This document shows positions 9,048 to 43,501 of a DNA stretch of 64,000 bases, piece after piece. The translations under genes were made by a program, and so were the position numbers. Each line of letters starts with the position of its first letter. Positions within the stretch are counted from its first letter, which is position 1. Below the pieces are notes generated by a model. It was given only the letters and a program-made list of their open reading frames with translations, was not told the DNA's origin and did no database searches. Source of the DNA: a virus; the IMG/VR virus record IMGVR_UViG_3300034283_001962, positions 1-64,000 of that record; one strand, given 5' to 3'.

Positions 9048-11972
9048 TTATCTTCTTCCTCTAGATTGTCTAGGAAAAAATCCATGCCAATCCCAATTAT
9101 TTCGCTGTATTCTTTGTTTATCTAAAGTTTGTTGATTTTTGCTATCTGTTAATGTAGTTATATTTTTAATATTACCTTGAGCATCTTGCATTGTTCTTAC
9201 TGTAGTAGCATCACTTACTTGATTAGTAGTGTTGGTTGGAGTACCCCATCTAAATGCTGGATCTGCACCTTCATAACCAACTCCAACGATTTGACCTTTA
9301 TTATTTCTTTGGTAACGGAAATCATACAAAGCTTCGTTGGTTATAGTCTTAATGTTCTCCAATTCGTTCTGAAGAACTTTACTACTAATAGAACTAAGAG
9401 CTGTAAACAAGTCACGTTTTGTATTACTGCGAGCTTGTTCTTGACGAACCATTTGTTGGTCAGCCAAACCAAGGTTTCTAAACTGAGCATCGTTTCTAAG
9501 TGAAACATTCTTGTTGATAATATCACTTTCGATACCTTGATTTACTCTAAATTCCTCAGCTCCAATTTTAGTATCTGCCATATATTTTTGTGCAGCTAAA
9601 GTTCCTAGTGCTGCAGGATTAGAAGCCAGAGTACTTTGAATAGCATTAAATGAAGCAGTATTCTCATTCCTCATATCTTGATACGATACTTGATATGGAC
9701 TATACATTTCTGGTTCATACTTTTGAACAGGAACAGGTCTTACCCTGTTTGTACCAATAGCAGCCAACTCTGGTGCTATCTGAGTAATCTTTAATTTGTT
9801 TTGATCTGTAGCACTTGACATGTCCTTGTCCATATTGTGGATACTAGGATTGTAAGGAGTAGACTTTGCACCTTTACCAAAATCAGGAGGATTACGACTG
9901 AATGTTCTTTTACTTTGATCTACACCTAGAGCTTTAGTTAACCCTGTGGTTATAGGAGTAGGTGCTTCAGCTACTGGAGCTGCTGATTTCGGAGGATCAA
10001 CTTGTGTAGTGGAACTACTGGTTGATATACCTGCTCTTTTTACGTATTCTCTTAAAGTTTCTTTTTCTCCAGATACAGATGCCATGATAGGATCATCCCA
10101 ACCAATAGTTCTTTTCTCTCCTTTTGCAGTGGTAATAGTAGCTTTTCCTGTTTTTTGTAAGCTGTTTGCAGCTCCCTCTCCTAATCTATGAGCAGCAAGA
10201 ATAAGATTTACATCTCCTCCATATTTAGAATGTAAAGATTCAATATGCTTATTCATCACAAGTTCTTGTATATTTCCCCTGTTGTTTTTAAAAGCATCCT
10301 CAAACTCTTCTTTATTTTTGATACCAAATTGATCTTCAAATTCTTTTTTATTGGTATTATAATACTTTTGTCTGGTATCTTTGATAAATTGATATTTACC
10401 ATAAGCCGTTCCTCCCATTTTAGTAAGAATGTCATATCCTGATTTTCCTTCTGCTTTCCAGATTGCTTGTTTGATATTTACAAGTAGATCGGGATCAATT
10501 TCTCCACCAGCAGCAAATGACATCTTAGCACCAAACTTAGCTTTGATTTGTTTACCTTCACTCATTGCTTTTGGTTCCAATCCATTGACTTGAGCCATCA
10601 TTAACATTTCGTTTTGTAATGCAGATAGTAACTCTTTTGATTGAGCTATCTGTTGTTTTTTCTTTTCAGCTCCTTCTACTTTCATTTTGCCTGAATTAGA
10701 AGCAAGTCTTTCGAACATATCTTGTGGATCAGACTCGTTTATTAGTTTCATTCCCTTATCCATATTTTTTGAGATATTACTTTCCATCTCACCTAAGTTT
10801 TTAGCAACGGTTTTAAACTTCTTTTTAGTACCGGGAACAATCATATTTCCAAATATATTAAGACTACCTTGACTATCAATAGCTGCTGTTTCGTCACCTT
10901 CAACTTCAGCTTTTACTCCTCCAAAATTTATATCAATTCCACCCTCTTCATGAGAAGGCCCATTGAACATAAATGTTCCACCATCTACTTCATTGTCTCC
11001 AATCTTTTTGATTGAACCACCATATTGCATTTTAGTATATTGATTAACATTTTCATCAATAGATGTTTTTTTAACGTTTTTGAATCTACCTGGTTTATTA
11101 TAAATAGAATTTGGTATCCAATCACCATCTTTATTAAAAGAACCTTGCAATTGTTGTTGTTCTGTAATATATGAGTTTATATCTAAATTAGGATTTTGTT
11201 GCAAGAATTGTTGTTTTTTCATTTCTTGTTGAAAATCATAATCTAGTCTTTTTTGTGTAAGAGGATCAACAACCATAGCATCTCTTGCTCTAGTAGCTTC
11301 AATACTTTCAGAACGAGTAGGCCAATTAATATCTTTATAATTTGAAGACATTAACATTGGTTTTTTCTTAGGTTTAGGATCTTCTACAGTCATGCCAAGA
11401 TTAGCTTTCATTTTTCCTCCGTCCTTCATAATAGCTTGAGATCCTCTACCATACATCTTATTATTAAACGTAGTAGTTGGTCTTACAACTTCTTGGCGTT
11501 TTAAACCTTTTTGAGGAATAAGATAATCTGTAATAGCTAACCCTGTTAGTATATTATCACCCCAGTTAGTTTTATTTTTAGCTGATTGATCAGTAGAAGC
11601 TGGGCGATTAAAGCTAGCTTCAGCTTTAGCTCTAGCTGGAGTAGATACCATCATCTCTTTCCCATCCATTATATTAACTGGTTTCTGTTCAAAAGAATCC
11701 ATGATGATATTCTGTCCGCGAAACTGATTATTTATTTGTTCATCAGCATTACGGTTAGTGTACTTATCAGTAATAGTAGGATTTATTTCTTGATATGTTC
11801 CGTACATATTTTTAGCTGCTATATACTCCATAAGAGTAGAGTAGTCTTCTCTTACAGGAGGTACTCCTGGTTCAATAGGACCACCTGCAGCAAATTTCTT
11901 TCCTGTTATACCAAATAACTCATTAATATGTTTAACAAGTATTGGACTTTTCTTTGTTGTTTTCTTAGCCAT
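9048..11972 (-). CDS. Virion cargo protein with a lysozyme-fold/transglycosylase-like domain (974 aa)
   Basis: AIWKAE..G..YD..AYGKYQF...LAAHRLGEG motif; GPSHEEGG motif; repeated xxGG/xxG motifs. Confidence 0.6.
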   Translation of the reverse strand: MAKKTTKKSPILVKHINELFGITGKKFAAGGPIEPGVPPVREDYSTLMEYIAAKNMYGTYQEINPTITDKYTNRNADEQINNQFRGQNIIMDSFEQKPVNIMDGKEMMVSTPARAKAEASFNRPASTDQSAKNKTNWGDNILTGLAITDYLIPQKGLKRQEVVRPTTTFNNKMYGRGSQAIMKDGGKMKANLGMTVEDPKPKKKPMLMSSNYKDINWPTRSESIEATRARDAMVVDPLTQKRLDYDFQQEMKKQQFLQQNPNLDINSYITEQQQLQGSFNKDGDWIPNSIYNKPGRFKNVKKTSIDENVNQYTKMQYGGSIKKIGDNEVDGGTFMFNGPSHEEGGIDINFGGVKAEVEGDETAAIDSQGSLNIFGNMIVPGTKKKFKTVAKNLGEMESNISKNMDKGMKLINESDPQDMFERLASNSGKMKVEGAEKKKQQIAQSKELLSALQNEMLMMAQVNGLEPKAMSEGKQIKAKFGAKMSFAAGGEIDPDLLVNIKQAIWKAEGKSGYDILTKMGGTAYGKYQFIKDTRQKYYNTNKKEFEDQFGIKNKEEFEDAFKNNRGNIQELVMNKHIESLHSKYGGDVNLILAAHRLGEGAANSLQKTGKATITTAKGEKRTIGWDDPIMASVSGEKETLREYVKRAGISTSSSTTQVDPPKSAAPVAEAPTPITTGLTKALGVDQSKRTFSRNPPDFGKGAKSTPYNPSIHNMDKDMSSATDQNKLKITQIAPELAAIGTNRVRPVPVQKYEPEMYSPYQVSYQDMRNENTASFNAIQSTLASNPAALGTLAAQKYMADTKIGAEEFRVNQGIESDIINKNVSLRNDAQFRNLGLADQQMVRQEQARSNTKRDLFTALSSISSKVLQNELENIKTITNEALYDFRYQRNNKGQIVGVGYEGADPAFRWGTPTNTTNQVSDATTVRTMQDAQGNIKNITTLTDSKNQQTLDKQRIQRNNWDWHGFFPRQSRGRR

Positions 11973-33030: not shown

Positions 33031-35148
33031 TTATGATAAAATTTTAAGTGTTCTTTTTTTTCTATACTGACTAACAACTCTGGACTTATTATAATCAAGT
33101 ATAGATGATTTAACTCCTCTTTGAGTACCGTATAATGAATCTAATCTGCTATCTCCCCTATTATCAGATACTTTAATTTGAGGAGTCATATGTTCTGCTA
33201 AAGCAAGAGCACACTCTGCTGCAATAATTCGGTCAAAGTTTCCATCTTTATCATAGCGAACAATTTCTTCAAGTAACATAGGATCAAGAATTCGAGATAC
33301 ACCAATTACTTCACGTAATATTTTTCCTTCTTCATCTTTATCTATATATATAACTTCATCCAAATACTTCTTTAATATACCATCTAAGTAATCTCTAGTT
33401 TTACTAGAAGATCTTGAGATACCTTTCTTACGAGTTAGGGTTCTGGTATTGGGAACAATCTCTTTTAACCATCCTGGAGGATCTGCTAAATAGTGACCAT
33501 CTCCTTTATAAATCATGTAATTAATAAAGCTCATTTCATCATTCTCACAGAGTCCGTATGCATTATAATACTTGATAAGGTTTCGAGCGTTTTCATGCCA
33601 AGTATCTATATCTTTTGGTCGAGCTGAATATGAAGCAACAAACATCCATTGATATTTCTCTGCCATAATATCATGCTGTAACTTAAAGATATATACAGAA
33701 CCTAAAGAATCAGAAAAGCCACTATCACCGCTTTGGCGATAAGGATCAATTCCTGCCACGTACAATCCAAATGGAGGATTCTCAATAGGGAATTCGTAAA
33801 TAATAATAGGGGCATCCTTTGATTGTGTTTTTACTGGAAACTCTGTAATAGCTACTTTATCTGTAAATTTATGTGTTAGTTTTTGTCCATCATGGTATAT
33901 TTCAACAGGAGTACCTGTTCTACCTAAACCATTTAGTTTATCTTTTTGTAAACGTGCAGCTTCGATATTGAAATCATTACGAGCTAAACGTAGAAAAGAG
34001 TCAGAAGGTTTTAAAGGCCAGTAAGCTTTAAACTTAAGAATAGCTTTACTATTACCTGATTTTAACGCTTTATCATACTGTGGTTGCCACCATTCTTTAA
34101 GTGCTTTTTCCTCATTAGAAACTAAGATAGTTATCTTACTAAGTTGCTCATATCCTGGTTCATCTTCTTTAACATTCAGATATTCAGATAAAGCAATTGG
34201 CTCTTTATAAGCCATTTTAGCCATAGTAGCTGGGATAAATCTACCAATACGATTAACAGATCCAGGTTCTCTAGTATTCTCAAAGCTCAATAAGTTATAC
34301 GCATCAGCATTAAAGAATACTTCAGCTGCTTCTTCACCTACTTCCATGTCACCACCTGTACCTGCGTACATGGTTAAACAAGAAGGTTTATCACCATCAC
34401 CTGACCACCAACAACCATCAGAGTCTTTAATACATCCAATAAAATTTGGTAGTGCTCCAATTTCATCTATAAGATGAAATCCAGGACGAGTACCATTAGC
34501 AGCCATTGTTTTGTTACCATCTTCATAATTTCTAACTTTAATAGAAGACTTTGAAGACTTTTCGTGAGCAAGACCTGTTTTCTTATCCTTCCAGCCTGCA
34601 ACAATCTCTTTCTTCCAATCACTCATTAAACGCTGCTTTCTAAATGCAGGATGGATGTTAGTTAATCCATCTTCAATTTTATCAGTAGCTAGTTTAATAT
34701 AACTTGCAGCTCCAGCTGAAATAACTGCTTCTGATTGATCATAAAAGGTATATAAATATGCAGCACGAGAAGCTGCAATAATAGATTTACCAAAGTCACG
34801 AGACCCAACTAATCCATAAAATCTACCAAATTCTTCACATTTAAGAAAGTCATCTGATGTAATCCACTCAATATCTCGAAGAAAAGGAACTTTTACAAAC
34901 CTTGCTTTCTTTTTTGTTTTTGGATTTTCTATGTACATAGCAATTTTCCAATATACTGTATGGAAATATAACCATCCAGAAATAAAGATATTACCTATAT
35001 AAAATCCAGTAATACATCTTTCTTTTTCTTTTGCCCAGTATTCTTTAAATACTTCATATAGTACATGATTTTGTGGATCATATATAGGTTCAACCTGAGA
35101 AGGAAACCATATATTAACAGTGTCTTGCCTATATTTATTTGTATCCAT
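33031..35148 (-). CDS. terL: Terminase large subunit
   Basis: Walker A SRDFGKS, Walker B LIDEIG, GTGG, nuclease AGIDPY, GNFDR. Confidence 0.9.
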   Translation of the reverse strand: MDTNKYRQDTVNIWFPSQVEPIYDPQNHVLYEVFKEYWAKEKERCITGFYIGNIFISGWLYFHTVYWKIAMYIENPKTKKKARFVKVPFLRDIEWITSDDFLKCEEFGRFYGLVGSRDFGKSIIAASRAAYLYTFYDQSEAVISAGAASYIKLATDKIEDGLTNIHPAFRKQRLMSDWKKEIVAGWKDKKTGLAHEKSSKSSIKVRNYEDGNKTMAANGTRPGFHLIDEIGALPNFIGCIKDSDGCWWSGDGDKPSCLTMYAGTGGDMEVGEEAAEVFFNADAYNLLSFENTREPGSVNRIGRFIPATMAKMAYKEPIALSEYLNVKEDEPGYEQLSKITILVSNEEKALKEWWQPQYDKALKSGNSKAILKFKAYWPLKPSDSFLRLARNDFNIEAARLQKDKLNGLGRTGTPVEIYHDGQKLTHKFTDKVAITEFPVKTQSKDAPIIIYEFPIENPPFGLYVAGIDPYRQSGDSGFSDSLGSVYIFKLQHDIMAEKYQWMFVASYSARPKDIDTWHENARNLIKYYNAYGLCENDEMSFINYMIYKGDGHYLADPPGWLKEIVPNTRTLTRKKGISRSSSKTRDYLDGILKKYLDEVIYIDKDEEGKILREVIGVSRILDPMLLEEIVRYDKDGNFDRIIAAECALALAEHMTPQIKVSDNRGDSRLDSLYGTQRGVKSSILDYNKSRVVSQYRKKRTLKILS

Positions 35149-35471
35149 TAGAACTCTCCTTGCTCAAAGGGACTAAGATCTGCGTCACCTCTAGTTAACA
35201 TCTTTTTCTGTTCTTCTTTTTCTCTAAGTTTAGCAATAGCTTCAACGATTAGTGCATAATCTTTTAAGGTATCCCTAATGTTTTTATGCTGTTGTTCAAT
35301 AGTGGCAACTACCATAGGTATTACTCCACCTCCCCTTGTTTCTCTATTCTGAATTCTATCTATTAAAGTAGATAAAGGGTTGCTATCTACATAAGAACGG
35401 AGTTCTTCGGCTTTCATTTCAAGCCACTCCAATTCCATGTCTATGTAGTTGTTTCTTTTACTTACTGCCAT
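35148..35471 (-). CDS. Hypothetical protein, candidate terminase small subunit
   Basis: Helical 107 aa ORF coupled to terL. Confidence 0.4.
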   Translation of the reverse strand: MAVSKRNNYIDMELEWLEMKAEELRSYVDSNPLSTLIDRIQNRETRGGGVIPMVVATIEQQHKNIRDTLKDYALIVEAIAKLREKEEQKKMLTRGDADLSPFEQGEF

Positions 35472-35776
35472 AAATCATCATCCTCCTCTTCATTATCATT
35501 ATATAAATTAATCTTATCAATATTTTTTCCTTCTTCAATTATTTTCTCAAGTTCAGAATCATGAGTTGGAATAAAGTTTTCAATTTCCATATTAGCTTGA
35601 TATTTTTCTAATGCAAATACCAATTCTTTATTAGATAAACCCCATAGATCTTGTATTTTTCCATAATCAGAAAATGCTGTAGCTAAATGATTAGATATAG
35701 GTTGAGCAGGAAATTGCTTATTAAGTTCCTGTAATAAAGTAATAAATTGATTTAATTGATTTAATTTTTTAGACAT
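35462..35776 (-). CDS. Hypothetical protein
   Basis: ORF track. Confidence 0.5.
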   Translation of the reverse strand: MSKKLNQLNQFITLLQELNKQFPAQPISNHLATAFSDYGKIQDLWGLSNKELVFALEKYQANMEIENFIPTHDSELEKIIEEGKNIDKINLYNDNEEEDDDLWQ

Positions 35777-35781
35777 AAATC

Positions 35782-35988
35782 TTATATTAGTTCAGAAAGA
35801 TTATTATTTTTATTTACTAATAAGTTATTAGTATTTAATTGTTTAGGATAAGTTTCAATTGGAGGTACACTAATTATTTTTACAGTATTTGTTTTATCAT
35901 CTAAAGTAATATTGATATATTTAGAATGTACTGATAAATCATTCAGCACTTTAAATATTTTATTAATCTCTACGTTATAAACAGTCAT
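35782..35988 (-). CDS. Hypothetical protein
   Basis: ORF track. Confidence 0.45.
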   Translation of the reverse strand: MTVYNVEINKIFKVLNDLSVHSKYINITLDDKTNTVKIISVPPIETYPKQLNTNNLLVNKNNNLSELI

Positions 35989-36291
35989 ATATTATTCTTT
36001 TGCTTTAAAGATTCCCATTCAGCATCTTCCATAACTTTTAACCATTTCTTTTGGGGACATTCACAATCCAAACATCTAGTTTTTAAATGAATATTACATC
36101 CACAATCAGTACAATGATTATCAGGTCTATCTGTTAAATATCCTTTTGATATAGCATTAGTAGAAAAAGATGGACACTCTTTACATATTTCTGTTCTTTC
36201 TATTGCAATAGCTTCAACCCATTTTCTAACAAATATTGAGTTATAAGCTCCTTTAATAATACCTTTAACATCAATTTTTTTCCAGTTCATT
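35985..36291 (-). CDS. Zn-binding protein (C..C...C..CGC....KTR.....CP...W)
   Basis: Conserved Cys pattern; likely start near MNWKK (start approximate). Confidence 0.6.
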
Positions 36292-36621
36292 AATTTTAGT
36301 TTTGGCATTTTCAATATACATTTGTAAGCTTTTAATAAAATTTAATATATTTTCAGAAGGGTTTTCAATTTTTTGAATCTCTAGTAACTTCTTTTCTTTT
36401 TTACGAATATCTATCTTTAGCTTTCGAACAGAAAATCTAAATACTCCAAACCCAGATAATTCTACAGTGGTACAAGAGTTAAATGCTTTAGTTGCATCTT
36501 TAAATATAAAGTTTATAACTTTATCTATTTCTATAGGTTTAATATCTAACTTAGAAGATAATCTATTAATTAATACTTCCTGAAGTTTATCTTTAGATAT
36601 AAGGTTATTTTCTAGATTCAT
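36271..36621 (-). CDS. HU/IHF-like DNA-binding protein
   Basis: VELSGFGVF motif. Confidence 0.7.
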   Translation of the reverse strand: MNLENNLISKDKLQEVLINRLSSKLDIKPIEIDKVINFIFKDATKAFNSCTTVELSGFGVFRFSVRKLKIDIRKKEKKLLEIQKIENPSENILNFIKSLQMYIENAKTKINELEKN

Positions 36622-36625
36622 TTAA

Positions 36626-36976
36626 TTATAATTTTTTAATTAAACTTATATCTAAAGATATATCTCTATTTATAAAATCTAGGTTGATTTGGTGAACTAT
36701 TCTATATTTACCTTGAAATTTTTCTAATAAACCTATTTCTTTTAATTCAGATATCATATTATTGACAGAGTTAACTGAACTGTTATATTTAACAGAGAAG
36801 TCATTTTTGGCTGACAAAGAAGATATCGTACCTCTAATAGCCGTAAAAGCTAATAATTGAAGTTGTTTATTTGTTACTTTAATATTATTAACTAAACAGA
36901 TTATAGAATAATACTTTAGAGCTATATCTAAAGCTGATTCTTCTTGTTTTTTGATTTTTTGTACGATTAAAGTCAT
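36626..36976 (-). CDS. Putative winged-helix DNA-binding protein
   Basis: S..SVNN.IS.LK..GLL pattern. Confidence 0.5.
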   Translation of the reverse strand: MTLIVQKIKKQEESALDIALKYYSIICLVNNIKVTNKQLQLLAFTAIRGTISSLSAKNDFSVKYNSSVNSVNNMISELKEIGLLEKFQGKYRIVHQINLDFINRDISLDISLIKKL

Positions 36977-37061
36977 CGTTCCTAATGTAATTAATTATGC
37001 AAAGATAGTGAAATTATAATATAAAGATATAGTTATATAATAACTTAATGCTATATTAAAC

Positions 37062-37090
37062 AAAAAAATCCTCCCTTTTGAGGAGGATTT
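37062..37090 (-). terminator. Terminator closing tRNA cassette C
   Basis: AAATCCTCC-TCAAAAG-GGAGGATTTTTTT. Confidence 0.75.
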
Positions 37091-37092
37091 AG

Positions 37093-37166
37093 AACACCTA
37101 GAAAGACTCGAACTTTCACTCTTTTGATCCGTAGTCAAAAGCTTTATCCAATTAAGCTATAGGTGC
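37093..37166 (-). tRNA. tRNA-Arg(ACG)
   Basis: Cloverleaf; anticodon loop CT-ACG-GA; TTCGAGT T-loop. Confidence 0.9.
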
Positions 37167-37169
37167 AGA

Positions 37170-37243
37170 TGGGTGGAATTGGGATTCGAACCCAATCAAG
37201 TGATTCACAGTCACCCGTCAGAATCCAGTCTGAACGATTCCAC
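37170..37243 (-). tRNA. tRNA-His(GTG)
   Basis: Loop CT-GTG-AA; G-1; TTCGAAT. Confidence 0.88.
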
Positions 37244-37245
37244 AG

Positions 37246-37318
37246 TTCCCTTATCTAGGCTCGAACTAGAACTACCAGAGTCAAAATCTGATGTGTTAAC
37301 CATTACACTATAAGGGAA
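37246..37318 (-). tRNA. tRNA-Gln(TTG)
   Basis: Loop TT-TTG-AC. Confidence 0.9.
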
Positions 37319-37334
37319 TAGCATACCATAAAAA

Positions 37335-37408
37335 TGGCACAGGTAGAGAGATTCGAACTCCCAACAGCAGTTTTGGAGACTGACATGATACCATTTCACC
37401 ATACCTGT
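37335..37408 (-). tRNA. tRNA-Trp(CCA)
   Basis: Loop CT-CCA-AA; encoded CCA end. Confidence 0.9.
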
Positions 37409-37413
37409 TTCTG

Positions 37414-37485
37414 TGGTAAGAAAGGGTAACGATCCCTTCTCCAAGGTTTTTCAGACCTTTGCTAATCCATCTCAGCTATCTTACC
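37414..37485 (-). tRNA. tRNA-Phe(GAA)
   Basis: Loop CT-GAA-AA; atypical T-loop ATCGTTA. Confidence 0.85.
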
Positions 37486-37494
37486 GTAATTTAA

Positions 37495-37568
37495 AGCATG
37501 TTGTACAAATTCTTCGTTTTCACATTGCAGGTGAATTAAGCCTATGTGTGCTGGCTGCGTAACATGTT
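37495..37568 (-). ncRNA. Y-RNA-like unit with Cys(GCA) anticodon-type hairpin
   Basis: Terminal stem CATGTT/AACATG, CAGCCA motif, hairpin TTCAC-CTGCAAT-GTGAA; same layout as the units at 58972-59398. Confidence 0.5.
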
Positions 37569-37571
37569 AAA

Positions 37572-37598
37572 AGCACTAACCAGATTCGAACTGGTGTG
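37572..37598 (-). pseudogene. 3' half of a disrupted tRNA (T-arm plus acceptor strand)
   Basis: ACCAG-TTCGAAT-CTGGT-TAGTGCT; matching 5' part AGCACTA-TG-ACCGA lies at ~37765-37778. Confidence 0.65.
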
Positions 37599-37599
37599 A

Positions 37600-37667
37600 A
37601 TCCAGTATGAGAATCGAACTCATTTCAATAGTTTTGCAGACTATTTGGCTTCCATAACCTCACTGGA
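37600..37667 (-). tRNA. tRNA-Cys(GCA), short D-arm
   Basis: Loop CT-GCA-AA; acceptor TCCAGTG/TACTGGA. Confidence 0.82.
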
Positions 37668-37772
37668 TAATTTATACCAATTAAAATCTTTTGCCGTTTT
37701 TCTTCTATGACAATTTGCGCATCTTACATCACATTTTTCAATTTCATTTTTTACCTGATTTAAATCGGTCAT
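37641..37772 (-). pseudogene. HNH endonuclease C-terminal remnant
   Basis: Translates MTDLNQVKNEIEKCDVRCANCHRRKTAK... Confidence 0.65.
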
Positions 37773-37783
37773 AGTGCTATTTG

Positions 37784-37855
37784 ATCCTCGTAAGGTACTC
37801 GAAACCTTTTCCCCAGTTTACAAGACTGGTGCATCACCATATATGCTTACAAGGA
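37784..37855 (-). tRNA. tRNA-Thr(TGT)
   Basis: Loop CT-TGT-AA. Confidence 0.85.
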
Positions 37856-37860
37856 ATATG

Positions 37861-37935
37861 TCGAGTAAACAGGAGTCGAACCTGCATGATGTCTTCACCC
37901 CAAATGAAGAGGCTTACCAGTTAGCCCATTACTCG
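37861..37935 (-). tRNA. tRNA-Pro(TGG)
   Basis: Loop TT-TGG-GG; TTCGACT. Confidence 0.88.
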
Positions 37936-37944
37936 ATGCTATAA

Positions 37945-37979
37945 AATAAAAAACCCCCGATTTTATGTCGGAGGGTGAA
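37945..37979 (-). terminator. Attenuator terminator of cassette C
   Basis: CCCTCCGA-CATAAAA-TCGGGGG-TTTTTT; the 5' arm is complementary to leader nt GAGGGTGAA. Confidence 0.75.
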
Positions 37980-38012
37980 TAGACTTTTTTTAGTCCGTTA
38001 TGCACGAATAGT

Positions 38013-38105
38013 CTAATTTTTTATGACACATGTACATAGTTCACCCTCTCCACAGATACACTGCGGGGTAAAAGTAAACCACGTATGACGTACTATCTTT
38101 TTCAT
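38013..38105 (-). CDS. Leader peptide C (MKKIVRHTWFTFTPQCICGEGELCTCVIKN)
   Basis: Translated by hand; lies between promoter 38110-38141 and terminator 37945-37979. Confidence 0.75.
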   Translation of the reverse strand: MKKIVRHTWFTFTPQCICGEGELCTCVIKN

Positions 38106-38109
38106 AACA

Positions 38110-38141
38110 CAAACATATGAAGAAATTCTGAAACTTCCAAA
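38110..38141 (-). promoter_or_regulatory. Bacteroidota-type promoter for cassette C
   Basis: TTTG-N20-TATGTTTG. Confidence 0.75.
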
Positions 38142-38154
38142 TTTATTTTTTTTG

Positions 38155-38225
38155 TTGGATAGGAGAGAATCGAACTCTCTTGCCTACGTTTTACAGACGT
38201 TGCTGGTTGCCCTGACCTCTACCCA
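38155..38225 (-). tRNA. tRNA-Tyr(GTA), short variable loop
   Basis: Loop CT-GTA-AA; acceptor TGGGTAG/CTATCCA. Confidence 0.8.
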
Positions 38226-38230
38226 ATATG

Positions 38231-38319
38231 CGGAGAAAGTGAGACTCGAACTCACACTAGAGTTTTATCCCTAGAACAGTTTAGCAAACTGCTGCAGTAC
38301 CATTATGACTTATTCCTCC
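38231..38319 (-). tRNA. tRNA-Ser(GCT)
   Basis: Loop TT-GCT-AA; long variable arm. Confidence 0.88.
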
Positions 38320-38324
38320 AAATG

Positions 38325-38408
38325 CGGTGGTAACAGGAATCGAACCTGTATGGCTGTTACACCTTCAACGTTTTCAAGACGCATAAGCCCTCTCTATTGC
38401 GTACCACC
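38325..38408 (-). tRNA. tRNA-Ser(TGA)
   Basis: Loop CT-TGA-AA; long variable arm; reduced D-arm. Confidence 0.82.
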
Positions 38409-38413
38409 AATTG

Positions 38414-38487
38414 TAGCTCTGATGAGATTCGAACTCACACAAAACAGATTTTAAGTCTGCCGCCGTTACCAATTAGACCACAGAGCT
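38414..38487 (-). tRNA. tRNA-Leu(TAA), short variable loop
   Basis: Loop CT-TAA-AA. Confidence 0.85.
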
Positions 38488-38490
38488 ATG

Positions 38491-38566
38491 TACCCCTAGC
38501 GAGATTCGAACTCGCAAAACTCCTGATTCTAAGTCAGGCGACTTTACCTAATTTGCCCATAGAGGT
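38491..38566 (-). tRNA. tRNA-Leu(TAG), short variable loop
   Basis: Loop CT-TAG-AA. Confidence 0.85.
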
Positions 38567-38574
38567 ATATAAAT

Positions 38575-38604
38575 AAAAAAACCTAGCTCTTTTAGGAACT
38601 AGGC
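38575..38604 (-). terminator. Attenuator terminator of cassette B
   Basis: GCCTAGTTC-CTAAAA-GAGCTAGGT-TTTTTT. Confidence 0.75.
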
Positions 38605-38629
38605 TTTAAGAAGTAGGTTAGAAAAAACC

Positions 38630-38707
38630 TTACTGTATATAATCCCTGTTCCCTTGATGAATCAAGAGCGATAAACTGGAATAATATGACAGTAATAGAT
38701 TTCTCAT
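38630..38707 (-). CDS. Leader peptide B (MRNLLLSYYSSLSLLIHQGNRDYIQ)
   Basis: Translated by hand; ATG 4 nt after the stop of the 126-aa ORF. Confidence 0.75.
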   Translation of the reverse strand: MRNLLLSYYSSLSLLIHQGNRDYIQ

Positions 38708-38711
38708 TGGA

Positions 38712-39092
38712 TTATCCTTCTACAGAAGTTTCAGGTTCAGTTGGTTCTTCAACTGGATCTACTGGGGGTTCTACTACATCAGTAATAGTACCTTTAAGGT
38801 CAGCAATAGCTAGATCTAATTTATCAGCTACAGCTTGAATTTCTTGTGAAGTTACTGAACTAGCTAATTGAGCTTGAAGATCAGCTACTACAGCTTCAAG
38901 ATCAGTAATTACTTTTGCAATTTGTGCTTGTTCAGCATCAAGAGACAATTGAAGTTCATCTACTTTTGCTGAAAGTTCTTGAATAGTTGCCATTGTTTGT
39001 TTATTTTGTGATTGTATTAAAAATATTTTTTTTACTAAATATACAAGAAATCCTATTGTTAGACTTTGTAAGATTATTATAAATAATAGCAT
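38712..39092 (-). CDS. Coiled-coil protein with possible N-terminal membrane anchor (alternative start MATIQ at ~38993)
   Basis: ORF track; hydrophobic N-terminus, heptads, Pro/acidic tail. Confidence 0.6.
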   Translation of the reverse strand: MLLFIIILQSLTIGFLVYLVKKIFLIQSQNKQTMATIQELSAKVDELQLSLDAEQAQIAKVITDLEAVVADLQAQLASSVTSQEIQAVADKLDLAIADLKGTITDVVEPPVDPVEEPTEPETSVEG

Positions 39093-39110
39093 AGTATATC
39101 TTTTCTACCA

Positions 39111-39142
39111 CAAATATAAACTTATAATTTGAAACTACCAAA
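39111..39142 (-). promoter_or_regulatory. Promoter for the 126-aa ORF and cassette B
   Basis: TTTG-N20-TATATTTG. Confidence 0.75.
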
Positions 39143-39155
39143 TTAATTTAATATG

Positions 39156-39228
39156 TACTCCTTATTAGACTTGAACTAATAACTTCTTCCATGTAAGGGA
39201 AGCACTCTACCAATTGAGTTAAAGGAGC
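39156..39228 (-). tRNA. tRNA-Val(TAC)
   Basis: Loop CT-TAC-AT. Confidence 0.88.
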
Positions 39229-39233
39229 AAAAG

Positions 39234-39307
39234 TGGAAGTCATGGGTATCGAACCCATCTCAGTTTGCTTGCAAAGCAATCTCGCCAGCCAAGGAACATG
39301 CACCCCC
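39234..39307 (-). tRNA. tRNA-Ala(TGC)
   Basis: Loop TT-TGC-AA; G3:U70. Confidence 0.8.
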
Positions 39308-39313
39308 AAAAAA

Positions 39314-39460
39314 TCAGGACTTTACGCCCTGATTAGTTAACTTAAAATAATCTGCTGCAGAAATCCGGTCTCGTACAAAAAGAGAAATAGGATTTGTACG
39401 AGCTGCAGCTTTTCTTTTCTTTTTGCCAAACTTACGTTGGCTTTTTACTTTCTGTGCCAT
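39314..39460 (-). CDS. Small basic protein (48 aa, MAQKVKSQRKFGKKKRKAAART...)
   Basis: Translated by hand; the region also folds into a long hairpin. Confidence 0.4.
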   Translation of the reverse strand: MAQKVKSQRKFGKKKRKAAARTNPISLFVRDRISAADYFKLTNQGVKS

Positions 39461-39536
39461 GTGAATACTTGGCTACTGTTTTGTCAGTAGTTACCGTATT
39501 CGGCTCATAGAATTCTTCATATTCATATTATTTAAG

Positions 39537-39609
39537 TTGGCATACTCAGACTCGAACTGAGGACTTCTGCAGTATCAGTGCAGTACTCTAACCACTGAGT
39601 TATACGCCA
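39537..39609 (-). tRNA. tRNA-Ile(GAT)
   Basis: Loop CT-GAT-AC. Confidence 0.88.
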
Positions 39610-39614
39610 GTATG

Positions 39615-39689
39615 TTGACTCTATCGGATTCGAACCGATGACCTTAACGTTATGAGCGTTCTGCTACTAACCAACTGAGCTAAGAGTCA
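39615..39689 (-). tRNA. tRNA(CAT): Ile2 or elongator Met
   Basis: Loop CT-CAT-AA. Confidence 0.85.
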
Positions 39690-39695
39690 AGAAGC

Positions 39696-39766
39696 CGAGA
39701 GTGGGAGGTTCGAACTCCGACCTTCACATCGACAGTGTGACATGCTCGCCATTACACTACACCCTC
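39696..39766 (-). tRNA. tRNA-Asp(GTC)
   Basis: Loop CT-GTC-GA. Confidence 0.85.
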
Positions 39767-39780
39767 GTTTAAATTTATTG

Positions 39781-39853
39781 TACTCTCAACGGGGATTGAA
39801 CCCGTATTGACAGATTGAAAGTCTGTTATCCTGACCAATTAGATGATGAGAGC
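39781..39853 (-). tRNA. tRNA-Glu(TTC)
   Basis: Loop CT-TTC-AA. Confidence 0.88.
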
Positions 39854-39900
39854 AAAGCTCTTCACCCTCTTTTAGTGAATTTCTCATAATACTATTTTTG

Positions 39901-39974
39901 TGCAGTAAACAAGACTCGAACTTGCAACTTCCACCTTGGCAAGGTGGCACTCTAACCAATTGAGCTATTACTGC
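39901..39974 (-). tRNA. tRNA-Gly(GCC)
   Basis: Loop TT-GCC-AA. Confidence 0.9.
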
Positions 39975-39975
39975 G

Positions 39976-40049
39976 TGGAGCAGGTAACCGGGATCGAACC
40001 GACATCAGAAGATTGGAAATCTCCTGCACTACCATTGTGCTATACCTGC
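39976..40049 (-). tRNA. tRNA-Gly(TCC)
   Basis: Loop TT-TCC-AA; encoded CCA. Confidence 0.9.
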
Positions 40050-40165
40050 ATTTCAGTTTTTCATGAGCCTTGTAGAACTGTAACTACCGCCGGACCTACT
40101 TTCTAGAATTTCCTCCGAACCCCTTTGCACCAGATTTTATATCTGGTGTGGTGCTACTGTTATCT

Positions 40166-40693
40166 TTAACCTACTTTCCTCAGTAATTCACTAAGTCTAA
40201 GTTCTGTGTAATCTTCTAATGGGATGACACTTAAAGCTTTCTTTCTGATAATGTGATCAGCTGCTTTTGTAGCTATCATTTGTCCACTTTTAAAGATCGG
40301 GACTTGGTTGATTCCTTTAGTCCATCCTTTAAAATCTTGTACCAGTTTTGATGACAGGGTTTTTTTGACATCTGCGAAATCAAACTCAAGCCCTTCAATA
40401 GAGATTGGTATCTCTCTACTGATAAGTTCTGATGTTTCGATTGTCTTAACCCCTTCTTCATATAATCTCAGGTACTCTGTTTTGTACCTTTTTTTCTCAT
40501 CATAATTGAATATATAATGAGCACCTCTTAAACCGTAACGGAAAACTACTACTGTAACAAACTTGGTAAGCTTGTAGTCCTGGGAGTCCGTACCTATCCT
40601 AATAGTCAAGTTGTTGTGTTCATTGACTTGTTCTAGAATATGATCTACCAGATTTACTATAGTACCATCCTCTTTTCTGAAGTACTTTTCCAT
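40166..40693 (-). CDS. RNase H-like YkuK (DUF458) family protein
   Basis: IGTDSQ, GAHY, RLYEE, A.KAADH motifs; start moved to MEKYF because the track's longer start overlaps a tRNA. Confidence 0.8.
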   Translation of the reverse strand: MEKYFRKEDGTIVNLVDHILEQVNEHNNLTIRIGTDSQDYKLTKFVTVVVFRYGLRGAHYIFNYDEKKRYKTEYLRLYEEGVKTIETSELISREIPISIEGLEFDFADVKKTLSSKLVQDFKGWTKGINQVPIFKSGQMIATKAADHIIRKKALSVIPLEDYTELRLSELLRKVG

Positions 40694-40706
40694 AACGGTT
40701 TTGTTG

Positions 40707-40780
40707 ATGCAGGGGTGGGCCGACGATCCCACGTATTTCTAGGTTATGAGCCTAGCGAGTCACCTCTACTCTACCCTGCA
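40707..40780 (-). tRNA. tRNA-Met(CAT), initiator-like, atypical T-loop
   Basis: TGCAGGG acceptor; CTAGG-CTCATAA-CCTAG. Confidence 0.75.
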
Positions 40781-40790
40781 GTTTATAATG

Positions 40791-40862
40791 CGTTCCCACC
40801 AAGACTCGAACTTGGATCAAATGATTAACAGTCACCCGTACTAGCCTTTGTACTATAGGAAC
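40791..40862 (-). tRNA. tRNA-Asn(GTT)
   Basis: Loop CT-GTT-AA. Confidence 0.88.
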
Positions 40863-40871
40863 ATTTAGTTG

Positions 40872-40943
40872 TAGCCCCAACAAGGATCGAACTCAGCAAT
40901 TGTTTTTTAAATTATAATGTAGTTTTCTATGACAATTACTGCA
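40872..40943 (-). pseudogene. HNH remnant (CSNCHRKLHY...) fused to a tRNA 3' fragment (GTTCGATCCTTGTTGGGGCTA)
   Basis: Hand translation plus T-loop/acceptor fragment. Confidence 0.6.
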
Positions 40944-41013
40944 GGGTTACGCAGAATCGAACTGCGACTGAAAGATTAGAAGTCTCTCGTTCTATCCATT
41001 AAACTATAACCCC
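40942..41013 (-). tRNA. tRNA-Arg(TCT)
   Basis: Loop CT-TCT-AA. Confidence 0.9.
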
Positions 41014-41071
41014 ATTATATTTAAATTCTCAATAACCTTTGTAAATACAACACATTATTTAATTAAACAAG

Positions 41072-41144
41072 TTCCCCCGCTGAGATTCGAACTCAGCCCC
41101 ATAGGTTAAAAGCCTATTGCCTACTACCAGTTTGCTACAGGGGA
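41072..41144 (-). tRNA. tRNA-Lys(TTT)
   Basis: Loop CT-TTT-AA. Confidence 0.9.
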
Positions 41145-41155
41145 TTATAAAAACG

Positions 41156-41190
41156 AAAAACCCCTGTACCGTTTTACTGGCTCAGGGGTC
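41156..41190 (-). terminator. Attenuator terminator of cassette A
   Basis: CCCCTGAGCC-AGTAAAAC-GGTACAGGGG-TTTTT. Confidence 0.78.
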
Positions 41191-41220
41191 TTAAAATTGC
41201 TATGTTAAAATTAACTTTTC

Positions 41221-41310
41221 TTAAGTTATAGCAAAAGGACCCACTGAGCCGAACTTCTCATTCGCTCTCCCGATATTATCTACTATAATATATGATGGTC
41301 TTGTTTGCAC
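41221..41310 (-). CDS. Leader peptide A (GTG start; MQTRPSYIIVDNIGRANEKFGSVGPFAIT)
   Basis: Translated by hand; lies between promoter 41328-41359 and the terminator. Confidence 0.72.
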   Translation of the reverse strand: MQTRPSYIIVDNIGRANEKFGSVGPFAIT

Positions 41311-41327
41311 TTTAAAATTTTGAATCA

Positions 41328-41359
41328 CAATATTAAGAAATCTTTTTGATACTACCAAA
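41328..41359 (-). promoter_or_regulatory. Promoter for cassette A
   Basis: TTTG-N20-TAATATTG (one mismatch to TAnnTTTG). Confidence 0.65.
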
Positions 41360-41363
41360 TTTT

Positions 41364-41828
41364 TTATTTTATTTCTTTTTCTGGTTCTGTTTTAAGCTGA
41401 TTTATATGAAAAATTTGTTCATAAACTGAGTCTGATCGCAATTTTGATAATTTTTTTACATGTTCATTAATCTTTTCTTTAAACATTTTCCTATTCCAAA
41501 TACACCAATATGTTTGAGCATCTCCTTTTATGTATATTTCAGTAAGATCAAATCCAAATTGTTCAATATCTTGAGCTTCTCTACCAGGTGTGTACCATTC
41601 TCCATAACCTATTATTGATTCATGAGGAAAAGAAACCATTCCTACTACTCTATCTATATCTTCGTCATCTTCTTCCTCATCATTAACTAAACCTAATTCT
41701 CTAAGTTTATTCTTACTTGCATCTTTCTTTTTACTAATAGATATTAATACTGGAAACTCAAATAGGTTATCTGTAAAATTAATATCAGGTTCGACAAGTA
41801 TTCCTTGTGGAGTTTTAGTTATGGACAT
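41364..41828 (-). CDS. Hypothetical protein
   Basis: ORF track. Confidence 0.55.
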   Translation of the reverse strand: MSITKTPQGILVEPDINFTDNLFEFPVLISISKKKDASKNKLRELGLVNDEEEDDEDIDRVVGMVSFPHESIIGYGEWYTPGREAQDIEQFGFDLTEIYIKGDAQTYWCIWNRKMFKEKINEHVKKLSKLRSDSVYEQIFHINQLKTEPEKEIK

Positions 41829-42414
41829 ATAAAACTTTTGGTATTTTAATTATATTTTCTTGTGGAAACTTTATTTTAAACTCCTCTACATATTCTCCAT
41901 CTGCTGCATAACTTGTATTTAATACAATCTGTTGAGCCAGATCATTTCTAGTCGCAAATGCTCCCATATCAATCTGATTAAATCCAGGTGAACATTTAAA
42001 GTAACTGTAATCATAATGACTATGTACCATATCCCAATAGATCATTCCTGGCTGTGTATAACTATTAATTGTTTTTTCAAATTCACTTACAAATGTAGGT
42101 ACATAGTAATTATCATCCCCACTCATAATTACATACTTTCCTCTACATTGTTGTTTACCTAATTCTCTAGGTGTATGTCCCCAATCATTATATCGCTTAT
42201 CCAAGTAAAGTACACGTATCCTTTTATCTATACCTTTTACTATATCAAAAAGCATACCTCTAAACTGATCTGAATAATCCAATCCATCCACTACCACCAG
42301 TGCTTCCCAATTCTCATTTGTCTGACATAATAAAGCACATAAAGTACTGCGTAATTCATTTATCCTATTATAAGTAGGTAACACAAAGCTTACCAATGGC
42401 TGATTATTTATCAT
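41815..42414 (-). CDS. Glycosyltransferase family 2
   Basis: VSFVLPTYNR, VVVDG, GDDN motifs. Confidence 0.85.
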   Translation of the reverse strand: MINNQPLVSFVLPTYNRINELRSTLCALLCQTNENWEALVVVDGLDYSDQFRGMLFDIVKGIDKRIRVLYLDKRYNDWGHTPRELGKQQCRGKYVIMSGDDNYYVPTFVSEFEKTINSYTQPGMIYWDMVHSHYDYSYFKCSPGFNQIDMGAFATRNDLAQQIVLNTSYAADGEYVEEFKIKFPQENIIKIPKVLYVHN

Positions 42415-42686
42415 AGTTCAGTCTTTTTACGATAAATAGTAACTTCTCTATAGTCATTAGTAACATTTGCAGGTGGTACATTTCTCAACATAAAACTAAT
42501 CTTCTTAATTCCCAATGTTTTACTAATAACCCTGTTGGCATCTGATACTTGCATCATATACTTACGTAAGTTCAGAAAGTCCACATCTTTATATGTAACT
42601 TCTCTTAAAGCAGGAGTATTGTCCAGTTTTCTAATAAGAGCCTGATACACCTTTTTACCTTGTTCTCTTGTACCTAAATTATTCAT
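42411..42686 (-). CDS. Hypothetical protein
   Basis: ORF track; overlapping operon. Confidence 0.5.
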   Translation of the reverse strand: MNNLGTREQGKKVYQALIRKLDNTPALREVTYKDVDFLNLRKYMMQVSDANRVISKTLGIKKISFMLRNVPPANVTNDYREVTIYRKKTEL

Positions 42687-42883
42687 CTTAATGGAATTGA
42701 GGCGTTAAGTATAACTTCAACAGCATGACACATTTCTTCTCTTTTTGTTTCTATTGAAATATTAGAAATATATCCAGTTACTATTACATGTGTATTTTTA
42801 TTTTGGTAATCCTCTACGGCTTTCTTAATCAAAGATTCAAGTATCGCAAGATCATCTTTAGCTTCCCCAACTGTTACTGTCAT
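42683..42883 (-). CDS. Hypothetical protein
   Basis: ORF track. Confidence 0.45.
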   Translation of the reverse strand: MTVTVGEAKDDLAILESLIKKAVEDYQNKNTHVIVTGYISNISIETKREEMCHAVEVILNASIPLR

Positions 42884-42886
42884 ATC

Positions 42887-43501
42887 TTAATATTTTGTAA
42901 TAGCAATTAGCTTATCATTACAGTGAAACTCAATTTTCTTAATATCAAAGCAGCCAACCTTCAGATTTTTAAACAAATCTATCGTTTTATGGCAATCTTT
43001 AGCGTGACAGTCCTCAATAAAATATACACCTCCACTATGAATAACTGGAAAAAGTGCAAAGAAACTGTTAATCTGAGCCTCAAATGTGTGAATACCATCA
43101 TCAATAATAAAGTCCCATGCTGGAATCTGATCCAATAATCTTATTAAATCTATCGGCTTTGTCTGATCAGCATAATGTAATGAACATCTTTTTCTATGAG
43201 CACTCTCAATATCCCGTAAGTTTTGATCAATATTAATATCAATTCCTGTATATGTAGATTCTTTACTTAACCATTCCAACCACATCAGCATTCCAGCACC
43301 CGGAAATCTAGGATCATTTATACCAATCTCCATCATATCAAAAACTACCTTATCCTCTCTTCTCATATAAGCTTCATAGACAGGAGTATAATTGTGCTTT
43401 TCATGGTGAAGATTACCTTTATCTGTACCGTACTTATTAGCTATATCAGTTAAGCTTTGTATCATTTTAGCAAATTTAATAGTTTTTTCCGTAATAAACA
43501 A
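42887..43501 (-). CDS. Class I SAM-dependent methyltransferase (sugar O-methyltransferase-like)
   Basis: YGTDK, H.Y..VY, EIG, GIDI, DQ, DFIIDDG.H, GG.YFIED; true start may be MIQSL (~43465). Confidence 0.8.
   Translation of the reverse strand: MFITEKTIKFAKMIQSLTDIANKYGTDKGNLHHEKHNYTPVYEAYMRREDKVVFDMMEIGINDPRFPGAGMLMWLEWLSKESTYTGIDINIDQNLRDIESAHRKRCSLHYADQTKPIDLIRLLDQIPAWDFIIDDGIHTFEAQINSFFALFPVIHSGGVYFIEDCHAKDCHKTIDLFKNLKVGCFDIKKIEFHCNDKLIAITKY

Follow-up and report, generated by a model that had tools for sequence, protein, structure and literature searches.

What governs the supply of transfer RNAs (tRNAs) in a phage that encodes its own? The question is raised by a short open reading frame (ORF) in the viral record IMGVR_UViG_3300034283_001962, the complete genome of a lake phage, of 118,407 bp with 32% G+C, whose tRNAs all lie within one array. 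Coordinates given without a phage name or locus handle are those of the window analysed, a 64,000-nt stretch of this record, and the features of the cassette in question, called cassette B, lie on its minus strand. There, a leader ORF with twelve consecutive Leu, Ser and Tyr codons stands before an intrinsic terminator, and tRNA genes for Leu, Ser and Tyr stand behind it. An earlier sequence-only reading had proposed a leader-peptide attenuator. Codon statistics, RNA folding and comparison with relatives point to the same answer: cassette B is probably a ribosome-mediated transcription attenuator that controls read-through into a five-gene phage tRNA block.

The leader, its codon run and the tRNA block

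The leader (38707..38630) comprises 25 codons and a TAA stop and encodes MRNLLLSYYSSLSLLIHQGNRDYIQ, as given by the ORF list and by direct reading of the sequence. An in-frame TAG occurs 15 nt upstream of the ATG, which is therefore the single possible start. Codons 4-15 (38663..38698) form the presumed sensor run, CTA TTA CTG TCA TAT TAT TCC AGT TTA TCG CTC TTG. The twelve codons that the sequence-only reading had reported, with five of the six Leu codons and four of the six Ser codons, are all present on the minus strand, and TAT occurs twice. Across all six frames of the 118,407-bp genome (236,000 codons) this is the longest run restricted to the three amino acids, the runner-up having 10 codons. 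When runs upstream of every tRNA block start were scanned for those confined to the amino acids that the next k tRNAs carry, the leader run again came out top, at exactly k=5.

Codon choice within the run is unusually diverse. Judged by draws from the phage's own codon usage, at least five distinct Leu codons in six draws have p=0.040 and four distinct Ser codons in four draws p=0.080, with a joint p of 0.0032. The run employs the rare codons CTG (4.5%), CTC (2.3%), TCC (2.2%) and TCG (2.0%), and the common CTT and TCT are absent from it. Its codons cover five boxes (CUN, UUR, UCN, AGY and UAY), one per downstream tRNA. Furthermore, the fold of the entire leader has an energy of -40.8 kcal/mol (z=-5.6), a value equalled by 1 of 200 shuffles. 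Run length, codon diversity and leader folding together confirm that the observation is real and lies beyond chance. Contigs from four lake-water DNA runs span leader B at low cover, are identical to it and hold zero variants.

The tRNA genes behind the terminator were located with ARAGORN and with the Rfam tRNA model. They comprise tRNA-Leu with anticodon UAG (38490..38566; 58.1 bits), tRNA-Leu with anticodon UAA (38413..38487; 60 bits), tRNA-Ser with anticodon GCU (38230..38319; 38.3 bits) and, as the last gene of cassette B, an ARAGORN-predicted tRNA-Tyr with anticodon GUA (38154..38225). A probable tRNA-Ser with anticodon UGA and a reduced D arm occupies 38324..38411. It is called at default thresholds by neither ARAGORN nor the Rfam tRNA model; ARAGORN returns it with -ps80 only, and the Rfam tRNA-Sec model scores it at 27.1 bits, under the cut-off. 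The block (Leu, Leu, Ser, Ser and Tyr) and the leader run represent exactly the same amino acids. The first tRNA begins 9 bases past the U-run of the terminator (11 past its stem), and no promoter motif occurs between the terminator and this tRNA. Read-through would therefore be the only route to expression of the block.

In block B (38154-38566), the long variable arm that is usual in bacterial Leu and Tyr tRNAs is missing from both Leu tRNAs (75-77 nt) and from the Tyr tRNA (72 nt), and is present in both Ser tRNAs. Bacteria have three class II tRNA identities, namely Leu, Ser and Tyr, so that block B may be an old class II tRNA block.

Alternative pairings, ribosome position and ribosome loading

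The intrinsic terminator (38575..38607) consists of a 12-pair hairpin (stem 38607-38578) followed by U7. It begins 22 nt past the leader stop and is among the three strong minus-strand terminators of the region. Folding predicts three further elements that define the possible switch. Segment 1 (38674..38695) lies within the sensor run and provides the 5' strand of a 1:2 hairpin. Segment 2 (38631..38653; GGGAACAGGGAUUAUAUACAGU) has either segment 1 as its partner or, through GGGAACAGG, segment 3 (38595..38607), which is the 5' arm of the terminator with the core CCUAGUUCC. Codons 19-21 (GGGAACAGG, 38653-38645) are indeed complementary to 38603-38595 (CCUAGUUCC) with one bulged A, and the pairing once proposed between GGAAC-AGG and CCT-A-GTTCC of the terminator is thereby borne out. 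The 1:2 hairpin has an energy of -20.4 kcal/mol, the 2:3 duplex of about -12.4 kcal/mol (-12.3 to -12.4) and the terminator of -14.8 kcal/mol.

Folds with a masked ribosome were run on a transcript cut before the 3' arm of the terminator, since the full transcript never loses the terminator. With no ribosome on the cut transcript, the 1:2 hairpin forms and the terminator 5' arm stays unpaired. The 2:3 antiterminator appears only with the ribosomal A site at codons 2-15, and none forms at codons 16-26. These ribosome positions match the L/S/Y run, which occupies codons 4-15. In these folds the leader, terminator and antiterminator act in silico as a trp-type attenuator, in agreement with the earlier proposal.

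The observed elements, the match between leader codons and tRNAs, the alternative pairings in silico and the conservation in relatives described below can be joined into one mechanism, for which we infer that the leader is translated and the terminator functions in the host. Transcription would start at a promoter-like motif (39142-39111) and cross an ORF of 126 amino acids (aa) into the leader. Fast reading of the 12 L/S/Y codons would bring the ribosome to codons 16-26 or the stop, or release it, leaving segment 2 covered or back with segment 1. The terminator (3:4) would then form, and the polymerase would halt 9 bases before tRNA-Leu. If charged Leu, Ser or Tyr tRNA were scarce for any of the five codon boxes, the ribosome would stall in the run and hold segment 1. 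Segment 2 (GGGAACAGG) could then pair with the terminator 5' arm (CCUAGUUCC), and stalling would thus change read-through. The product would comprise Leu(UAG), Leu(UAA), Ser(UGA), Ser(GCU) and Tyr(GUA). The new tRNAs would relieve the stall; the block would therefore limit its own synthesis in a feedback loop.

Known RNA families offer no match for such an element. At gathering score, Rfam leader families such as Leu_leader, Thr_leader, His_leader and Trp_leader, the T-box and riboswitches gave zero matches over 35000-43000, where only tRNA models scored. At E<=1, the interval 38100-39350 yielded tRNA-clan models, three weak plastid untranslated-region models antisense to tRNA genes and YrlA at E=0.98, with no leader family or T-box among them.

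How ribosomes reach the leader depends on what precedes it. The 126-aa ORF (38712..39092, minus strand), with an N-terminal hydrophobic stretch and a coiled coil, lies ahead of the leader in the transcript. Its TAA stop is at 38714-38712, so the leader ATG follows at 4 nt, just as had been claimed. One relative of this ORF was found; it lies in a different viral record and shares 46% identity over residues 31-103 (E 7e-17). Neither Pfam nor PHROG families match the ORF. The ORF is in turn preceded by the promoter-like motif at 39111..39142, TTTG-N20-TATATTTG, which is the sole one upstream of cassette B. The pattern TTTGN{19,21}TANNTTTG has 10 matches in the window against 2.17 expected, and none of 100 shuffles reached 10. 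We take TTTG-N19-21-TANNTTTG to be a Bacteroidota promoter type. Ribosome loading on the leader may depend on re-initiation after the 126-aa ORF, because no promoter motif lies between the promoter of this ORF and the leader, and because the leader follows an ORF here and in three further loci. Independent initiation guided by the putative Shine-Dalgarno-like GAAGGA (38715..38720), 7 nt before the leader ATG, seems equally possible.

Leaders of related arrays and of other tRNA blocks

A tblastn search with TerL against cultured phages returned crAss-like phages and the Cellulophaga phages phi4:1 and phi17:2 as relatives, the best being Leptolyngbya phage Lbo-JY46 (PP438436.1) with 36.8% identity. 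As in the studied phage, Lbo-JY46 carries its array, of 21 tRNAs, upstream of and next to TerL, in nearly the same gene order. At the matching place stand a promoter-like motif, a homologous 26-codon L/S/Y leader (MKNFNTYYSLSLSLSQPTQELYLCAY), a terminator and then Leu(UAG), Leu(UAA) and a Ser(UGA)-like tRNA, which appears to be the same device. An RNase H-like gene (PF04308; 40166-40693, minus strand) lies inside the tRNA array of the studied phage. Its relatives lie inside the arrays of Lbo-JY46, of 3 viral loci (two identical) and of most of 22 metagenome loci, and the same three tRNA blocks recur in many loci found through alignments of this protein. The gene appears to mark the array family well and may take part in tRNA processing.

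TerL tblastn and the RNase H-like alignments together led to 13 distinct loci with a Leu-block start, the cassette B locus included. In 12 of these, an ATG-started leader of 15-26 codons contains 8-12 L/S/Y codons in unbroken succession, ordered differently from locus to locus. The runs are LLLSYYSSLSLL, YYSLSLSLS, LYSSLSYLL, YSSLSLLYS, LYLLLSLSY, SYYSSSLLLY, SLYLSSYSLLSY, YYSSLSLLLS, SYYSSSLLLL, YYSLSLSS, LYLLSSLSYSL and SLYYSSLSLLS. In 10 of the 11 relatives, the locus has its longest L/S/Y run in this leader. Every one of the 12 leaders contains all five codon boxes; multiplied over the loci, which are related and so not independent, the chance values give 0.0025. CUC occurs in all 12 and UCC in 11. 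The sequence-only reading had suggested isoacceptor sampling and proposed codon diversity in homologues as a check, naming a conserved hydrophobic peptide as the sign of a small membrane peptide instead. The homologues speak for the proposed reading: L/S/Y codons from all five boxes are kept in changed order, and a hydrophobic peptide is not.

Pairing is likewise kept among the loci. In 12 of 12 loci, masked-ribosome folds give the antiterminator with the ribosome in the run and lose it after the run (terminator arms were set by hand for L043 and L050, and L052 was resolved only by a second parser). The start of segment 2 falls at codons 17-20 throughout. Its sequence and that of segment 3 vary from locus to locus without loss of complementarity, as in GGGAACAGG/CCUAGUUCC, CAGGAGC/GCCUCCUG, GCAGGG/CCCUGC, GCCGGG/CCCGGU, UAACAGGGAU/AUCCCUGUUA and ACUGGAA/UUCCAGU. 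Alignment of the 12 leaders with MAFFT, followed by RNAalifold, gave only a weak terminator consensus of 8 pairs at -0.44 kcal/mol. The alignment is not structure-aware; therefore, duplexes are given per locus and no covariation statistic is offered.

The loci differ in how the leader meets the promoter. In 8 of the 12, a gap of 4-17 nt separates the end of the promoter motif from the leader ATG, and these leaders are therefore leaderless or nearly so; in the cassette B locus and three others, the leader stands behind an ORF. The leaders of Lbo-JY46 (L039) are preceded by TTTG-N20-TAnnTTTG at 2929-2960 and 2199-2235 (minus strand), presumably a Bacteroidota type, and the host given in the record is the cyanobacterium Leptolyngbya boryana. 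The motif may be specific to the phage, or the host assignment may deserve a second look.

Neighbouring genes proved poor guides to further arrays. The 126-aa ORF led to 1 locus (L002) with 0 tRNAs, and the RNase H-like protein as a single query and a 154-aa protein led to none. With TerL by this route 15 loci were reached, of which the 7 scanned held 0-1 tRNA each, and the whole records of L003 and L002 hold 3 and 1 tRNAs, respectively. A 116-aa protein gave 12 loci, with tRNAs in 0 of 12, and blastn of 37900-39300 against phage records returned tRNA-sized matches only. Two of the related arrays contain a tRNA with anticodon CUA, labelled Pyl by ARAGORN (L043 8056-8128, the same as L054 9056, and L045 5439). 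It is possibly an amber suppressor, which would hint at stop-codon recoding in those relatives.

The same arrangement occurs twice more in the studied genome. Cassette A (37945-38141, minus strand) begins with a promoter-like motif (38141-38110) directly after tRNA-Tyr and continues with a 30-codon leader (MKKIVRHTWFTFTPQCICGEGELCTCVIKN) and a terminator (37974-37954). Behind the terminator lie the Pro, Thr, Cys, Phe, Trp, Gln, His and Arg(ACG) tRNAs. The leader run RHTWFTFTPQC names 8 of 8 amino acids of this block and none besides, and GAGGGUGAA pairs with UUCACCCUC of the terminator arm. A homologue of leader A, MKITRQHTQFWFPTGTGLGML, is also held by Lbo-JY46. In lake-water run X7 (1 contig, depth 3.6), position 38090 has A for G, which turns the Arg codon CGT of leader A into Cys TGT. 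The change stays in the amino-acid set of block A, at a depth too low for trust.

Cassette C (41148-41330, minus strand) has the run IIVDNIGRANEK in a GTG-started frame before the first block (Lys ... Val). There, GGCUCAGUGGGUC can base-pair with GACCCCUGAGCC in the terminator that precedes tRNA-Lys, and the antiterminator partner spans 12 bp. Taken alone, IIVDNIGRANEK is statistically weak, being 1 of 47 runs of at least 12 codons for that large amino-acid set. The Arg codons of the two leaders follow their blocks: CGT in leader A fits its Arg(ACG), and AGA in the first leader (IIVDNIGRANEK) fits its Arg(UCU), with a joint chance of about 0.2 given codon usage.

Cultured phages carry such leaders as well. 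Cellulophaga phage phi4:1 (NC_021788.1) has three, each matched to its own block: QRLHLQELEQP before Pro-Glu-Gln-His-Leu-Leu-Arg tRNAs, TKTGITVIDKTKGARA (annotated as hypothetical protein gp075) before Ala-Lys-Ile-Gly-Met-Asp-Thr-Val-Arg-Met, and YNNSNWSFSY before Tyr-Ser-Asn-Trp-Phe. Homologous leaders of equal composition and different order are found in Cellulophaga phage phi38:1 (NC_021796.1; run LLHQEPLEQLRLP) and Maribacter phage Panino (PP540027.1; run QRLHQELEQP). Both precede Pro-Glu-Gln-His-Leu-Arg blocks, each with terminator and antiterminator. These three phages would share the device with blocks partitioned differently (PEQHLR; AKIGMDTVR; YSNWF), their leaders being kin or analogues of the other cassettes and not of B. 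In public records, the leader ORFs are hypothetical proteins, partly with wrong starts, or stand unannotated (L040 of phi4:1, 2490-2609; L023 of phi38:1, 9895-10077; L024 of Panino, 5307-5402). The tRNA passages of an RNA-seq study of phi38:1 infection (PMC5335546) concern host tRNA genes only.

A scan of the tRNA region of phage T5 yielded no clean analogue. T5.072 (91 aa; L022, NC_005859, 13618-13893, minus strand) contains WEGWEGEIEWLYFY upstream of Tyr, Glu, Trp and Phe tRNAs. It is enriched in those four amino acids with others interspersed, and an annotated promoter separates it from the tRNAs; it gives a weak hint only.

Known attenuators, competing explanations and consequences

Amino-acid attenuators of enterobacteria include leaders that respond to more than one amino acid, such as that of ilvGMEDA for Ile, Leu and Val and that of thr for Thr and Ile, besides the leu leader. 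Cassette B would resemble these in having a short translated leader with clustered codons for several amino acids, an intrinsic terminator, an antiterminator that depends on stalling and four RNA segments whose 1:2, 2:3 and 3:4 pairings exclude one another. As in these attenuators, the terminator is more stable than the antiterminator, and control would be kinetic. In contrast to them, the phage leader would govern tRNA genes rather than biosynthetic enzymes, so that the product is the very molecule sensed; it samples five codon boxes for five anticodons and follows a 126-aa ORF. Held against the trpL, leuL and ilvL class as a whole, cassette B has the short ORF with its own start and stop, the cognate codon cluster, the terminator without a later promoter and, in silico, the exclusive 2:3 pairing and the stall geometry. 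Its regulated genes are five tRNA genes, not enzymes of biosynthesis or synthetases; it would therefore be a variant that works like the class and stands outside the described leader families. Among known cases, the multivalent ilv and thr leaders would be its nearest kin.

Other systems share single features. The E. coli pheST operon for phenylalanyl-tRNA synthetase is controlled by an attenuator with a Phe-rich leader. It is a case of leader-peptide attenuation of a component of the translation machinery, yet it serves a synthetase for one amino acid, not tRNA genes, and is not viral. T-box elements (Rfam RF00230) bind uncharged tRNA directly through one specifier codon, with no need for translation. 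They too are terminator/antiterminator switches that report the state of a particular tRNA, whereas the phage leader requires translation in the model, uses many codons and has no T-box match. In mycobacteria, leaderless polycysteine short ORFs are reported to act as cysteine-responsive attenuators (bioRxiv 10.1101/834739). As described there, these are short ORFs at or near the 5' end with a run of sensor codons, comparable to the 8 of 12 loci with a promoter 4-17 nt before the ATG; they differ in serving one amino acid, cellular operons and protein-coding targets. Searches of one literature library, by concept and by specific terms, found no description of leader-peptide control of tRNA genes, and the passages available from PMC4810235 and PMC7412058 hold nothing relevant to it. 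By this comparison the mechanism would be textbook leader-peptide attenuation, and what seems new is its target, phage tRNA genes, with each leader listing the codons of its own block.

Several results weigh against an attenuator that reads particular codons. In the cassette B locus, 46 of 500 dinucleotide shuffles attain the energy of the 2:3 duplex, which is only modestly better than chance; among the 12 loci, where the duplexes are reached by 4-46 of 500, it is the weakest. At equilibrium, the full transcript keeps a terminator probability of 0.87-0.96 at every masked ribosome position. The switch must therefore be kinetic, as is the attenuation switch of trpL. Cut transcripts of 5 of the 12 loci form the antiterminator even without a ribosome. 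The leader of cassette B is internal to its transcript and not at the 5' end, and L063, a differently arranged array, is without such a leader. A Pro-block leader was not found within 300 nt in 4 of 10 distinct relatives, so that control is not obligatory. The C-ending codons CUC and UCC are poorly read by U34 tRNAs and may be reporters of host tRNAs or merely supply G-C pairs for the 1:2 stem. In addition, the TerL relatives are crAss-like phages, so the transcribing polymerase may not be that of the host. Some crAss-like phages carry their own RNA polymerase.

Part of this evidence would also suit other explanations. The leader could act as a general translation sensor that ties tRNA transcription to overall ribosome traffic or speed, such as a global slowing or a lack of ribosomes, rather than to Leu/Ser/Tyr decoding, with codon choice being secondary. 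The masked folds antiterminate for any stall at codons 2-15 irrespective of codon identity, and translation of the leader in the cassette B locus may depend on that of the upstream ORF. Such a sensor leaves unexplained why leaders are restricted to the amino acids of their own block, in three blocks here and three in phi4:1, and why five codon boxes persist in 12 of 12 homologues despite changed order; we consider it improbable. It is more doubtful still that the terminator merely ends or insulates the 126-aa gene, the small ORF being meaningless, the tRNAs arising by leaky read-through and the run being a by-product of AT-richness or of the hairpin. In favour of this view, the genome has 32% G+C and the codons TTA, TAT and TCA are rich in A and T, the terminator always forms at equilibrium, and 46 of 500 shuffles reach the 2:3 duplex. 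It is at odds with a run that is the longest in 236,000 six-frame codons and uses the rare CTG, CTC, TCC and TCG, and with the retention of ATG, open frame and run in 12 of 13 related loci. Moreover, 8 related loci have no upstream gene to terminate and show a promoter 4-17 nt before the ATG instead.

It is very unlikely that the 25-residue product replaces or complements a cis switch by acting in trans as a regulatory or membrane peptide. Its core LLLSYYSSLSLLI is fairly hydrophobic, and some leader peptides do act in trans, as is reported of peTrpL of Sinorhizobium. The hydrophobic stretch, however, covers 13 residues including 4 Ser, and a membrane helix needs about 18 or more. The homologues have 15-26 residues with permuted runs and no shared flanks, and the only other letters in common are RDYI, shared by the cassette B locus and L041 and located over RNA segment 2. 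A membrane peptide was rejected as too short, too rich in Ser and too variable among homologues. Little credence at all can be given to leader RNA that binds uncharged tRNA in the manner of a T-box, with translation irrelevant. It would likewise link tRNA status with read-through, but T-box and riboswitch matches are absent at gathering score and at E<=1, and a T-box reads one specifier codon where 12 in-frame codons for five tRNAs are kept here with start and stop. The T-box was rejected on these grounds, and a degenerate tRNA reading was also considered and rejected.

If cassette B is the codon-specific attenuator favoured here, its meaning would extend beyond one phage. The usual view is that tRNA genes are expressed constitutively or in step with growth rate and that phage tRNAs add a fixed amount to those of the host. 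To our knowledge, no earlier case is known of tRNAs whose synthesis is set by how fast the specific codons they read are decoded. The attenuator would constitute a direct feedback loop inside translation, from codon decoding rate to the synthesis of the tRNAs that read those codons. It would also equip the phage with a built-in sensor for the loss of particular tRNAs, which bears on phage tRNAs that counter tRNA-cleaving defence; a link to such host defences is plausible. More tentatively, phage tRNA blocks might be product-repressed operons at large, switched on by stalling on leaders that list the codons of their own tRNAs and off by the tRNAs made. A phage could then sense and repair host tRNA shortage block by block, whether it stems from codon-usage mismatch or from host anticodon nucleases deployed as anti-phage defence. 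The trait could be an old one, shared by a wide crAss-related group with Leu/Ser/Tyr, Pro-type and Lys-type blocks that includes cultured Cellulophaga, Maribacter and Leptolyngbya phages. We regard this wider view as possible rather than probable. The cultured pairs (phi38:1 and phi4:1 on Cellulophaga baltica, Panino on Maribacter, and Lbo-JY46) make the idea testable with existing strains and probably with existing infection RNA-seq. The leaders would further be useful as an annotation aid, given that public records miss them or call them hypothetical proteins.

Some minor features complete the array of the studied phage. A weak tRNA-Ala(UGC)-like gene (39233-39301, minus strand) with a poor acceptor stem appears at a relaxed ARAGORN threshold only. 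If it and Ser(UGA) are counted, the array totals 25 tRNAs and covers all 20 amino acids. Between tRNA-Thr and tRNA-Cys, a 43-aa ORF (37641-37772, minus strand) with a CxxC...H motif resembles the remnant of an HNH homing endonuclease, and the arrays of Lbo-JY46 and L041 are interrupted by intact HNH or homing endonuclease genes.

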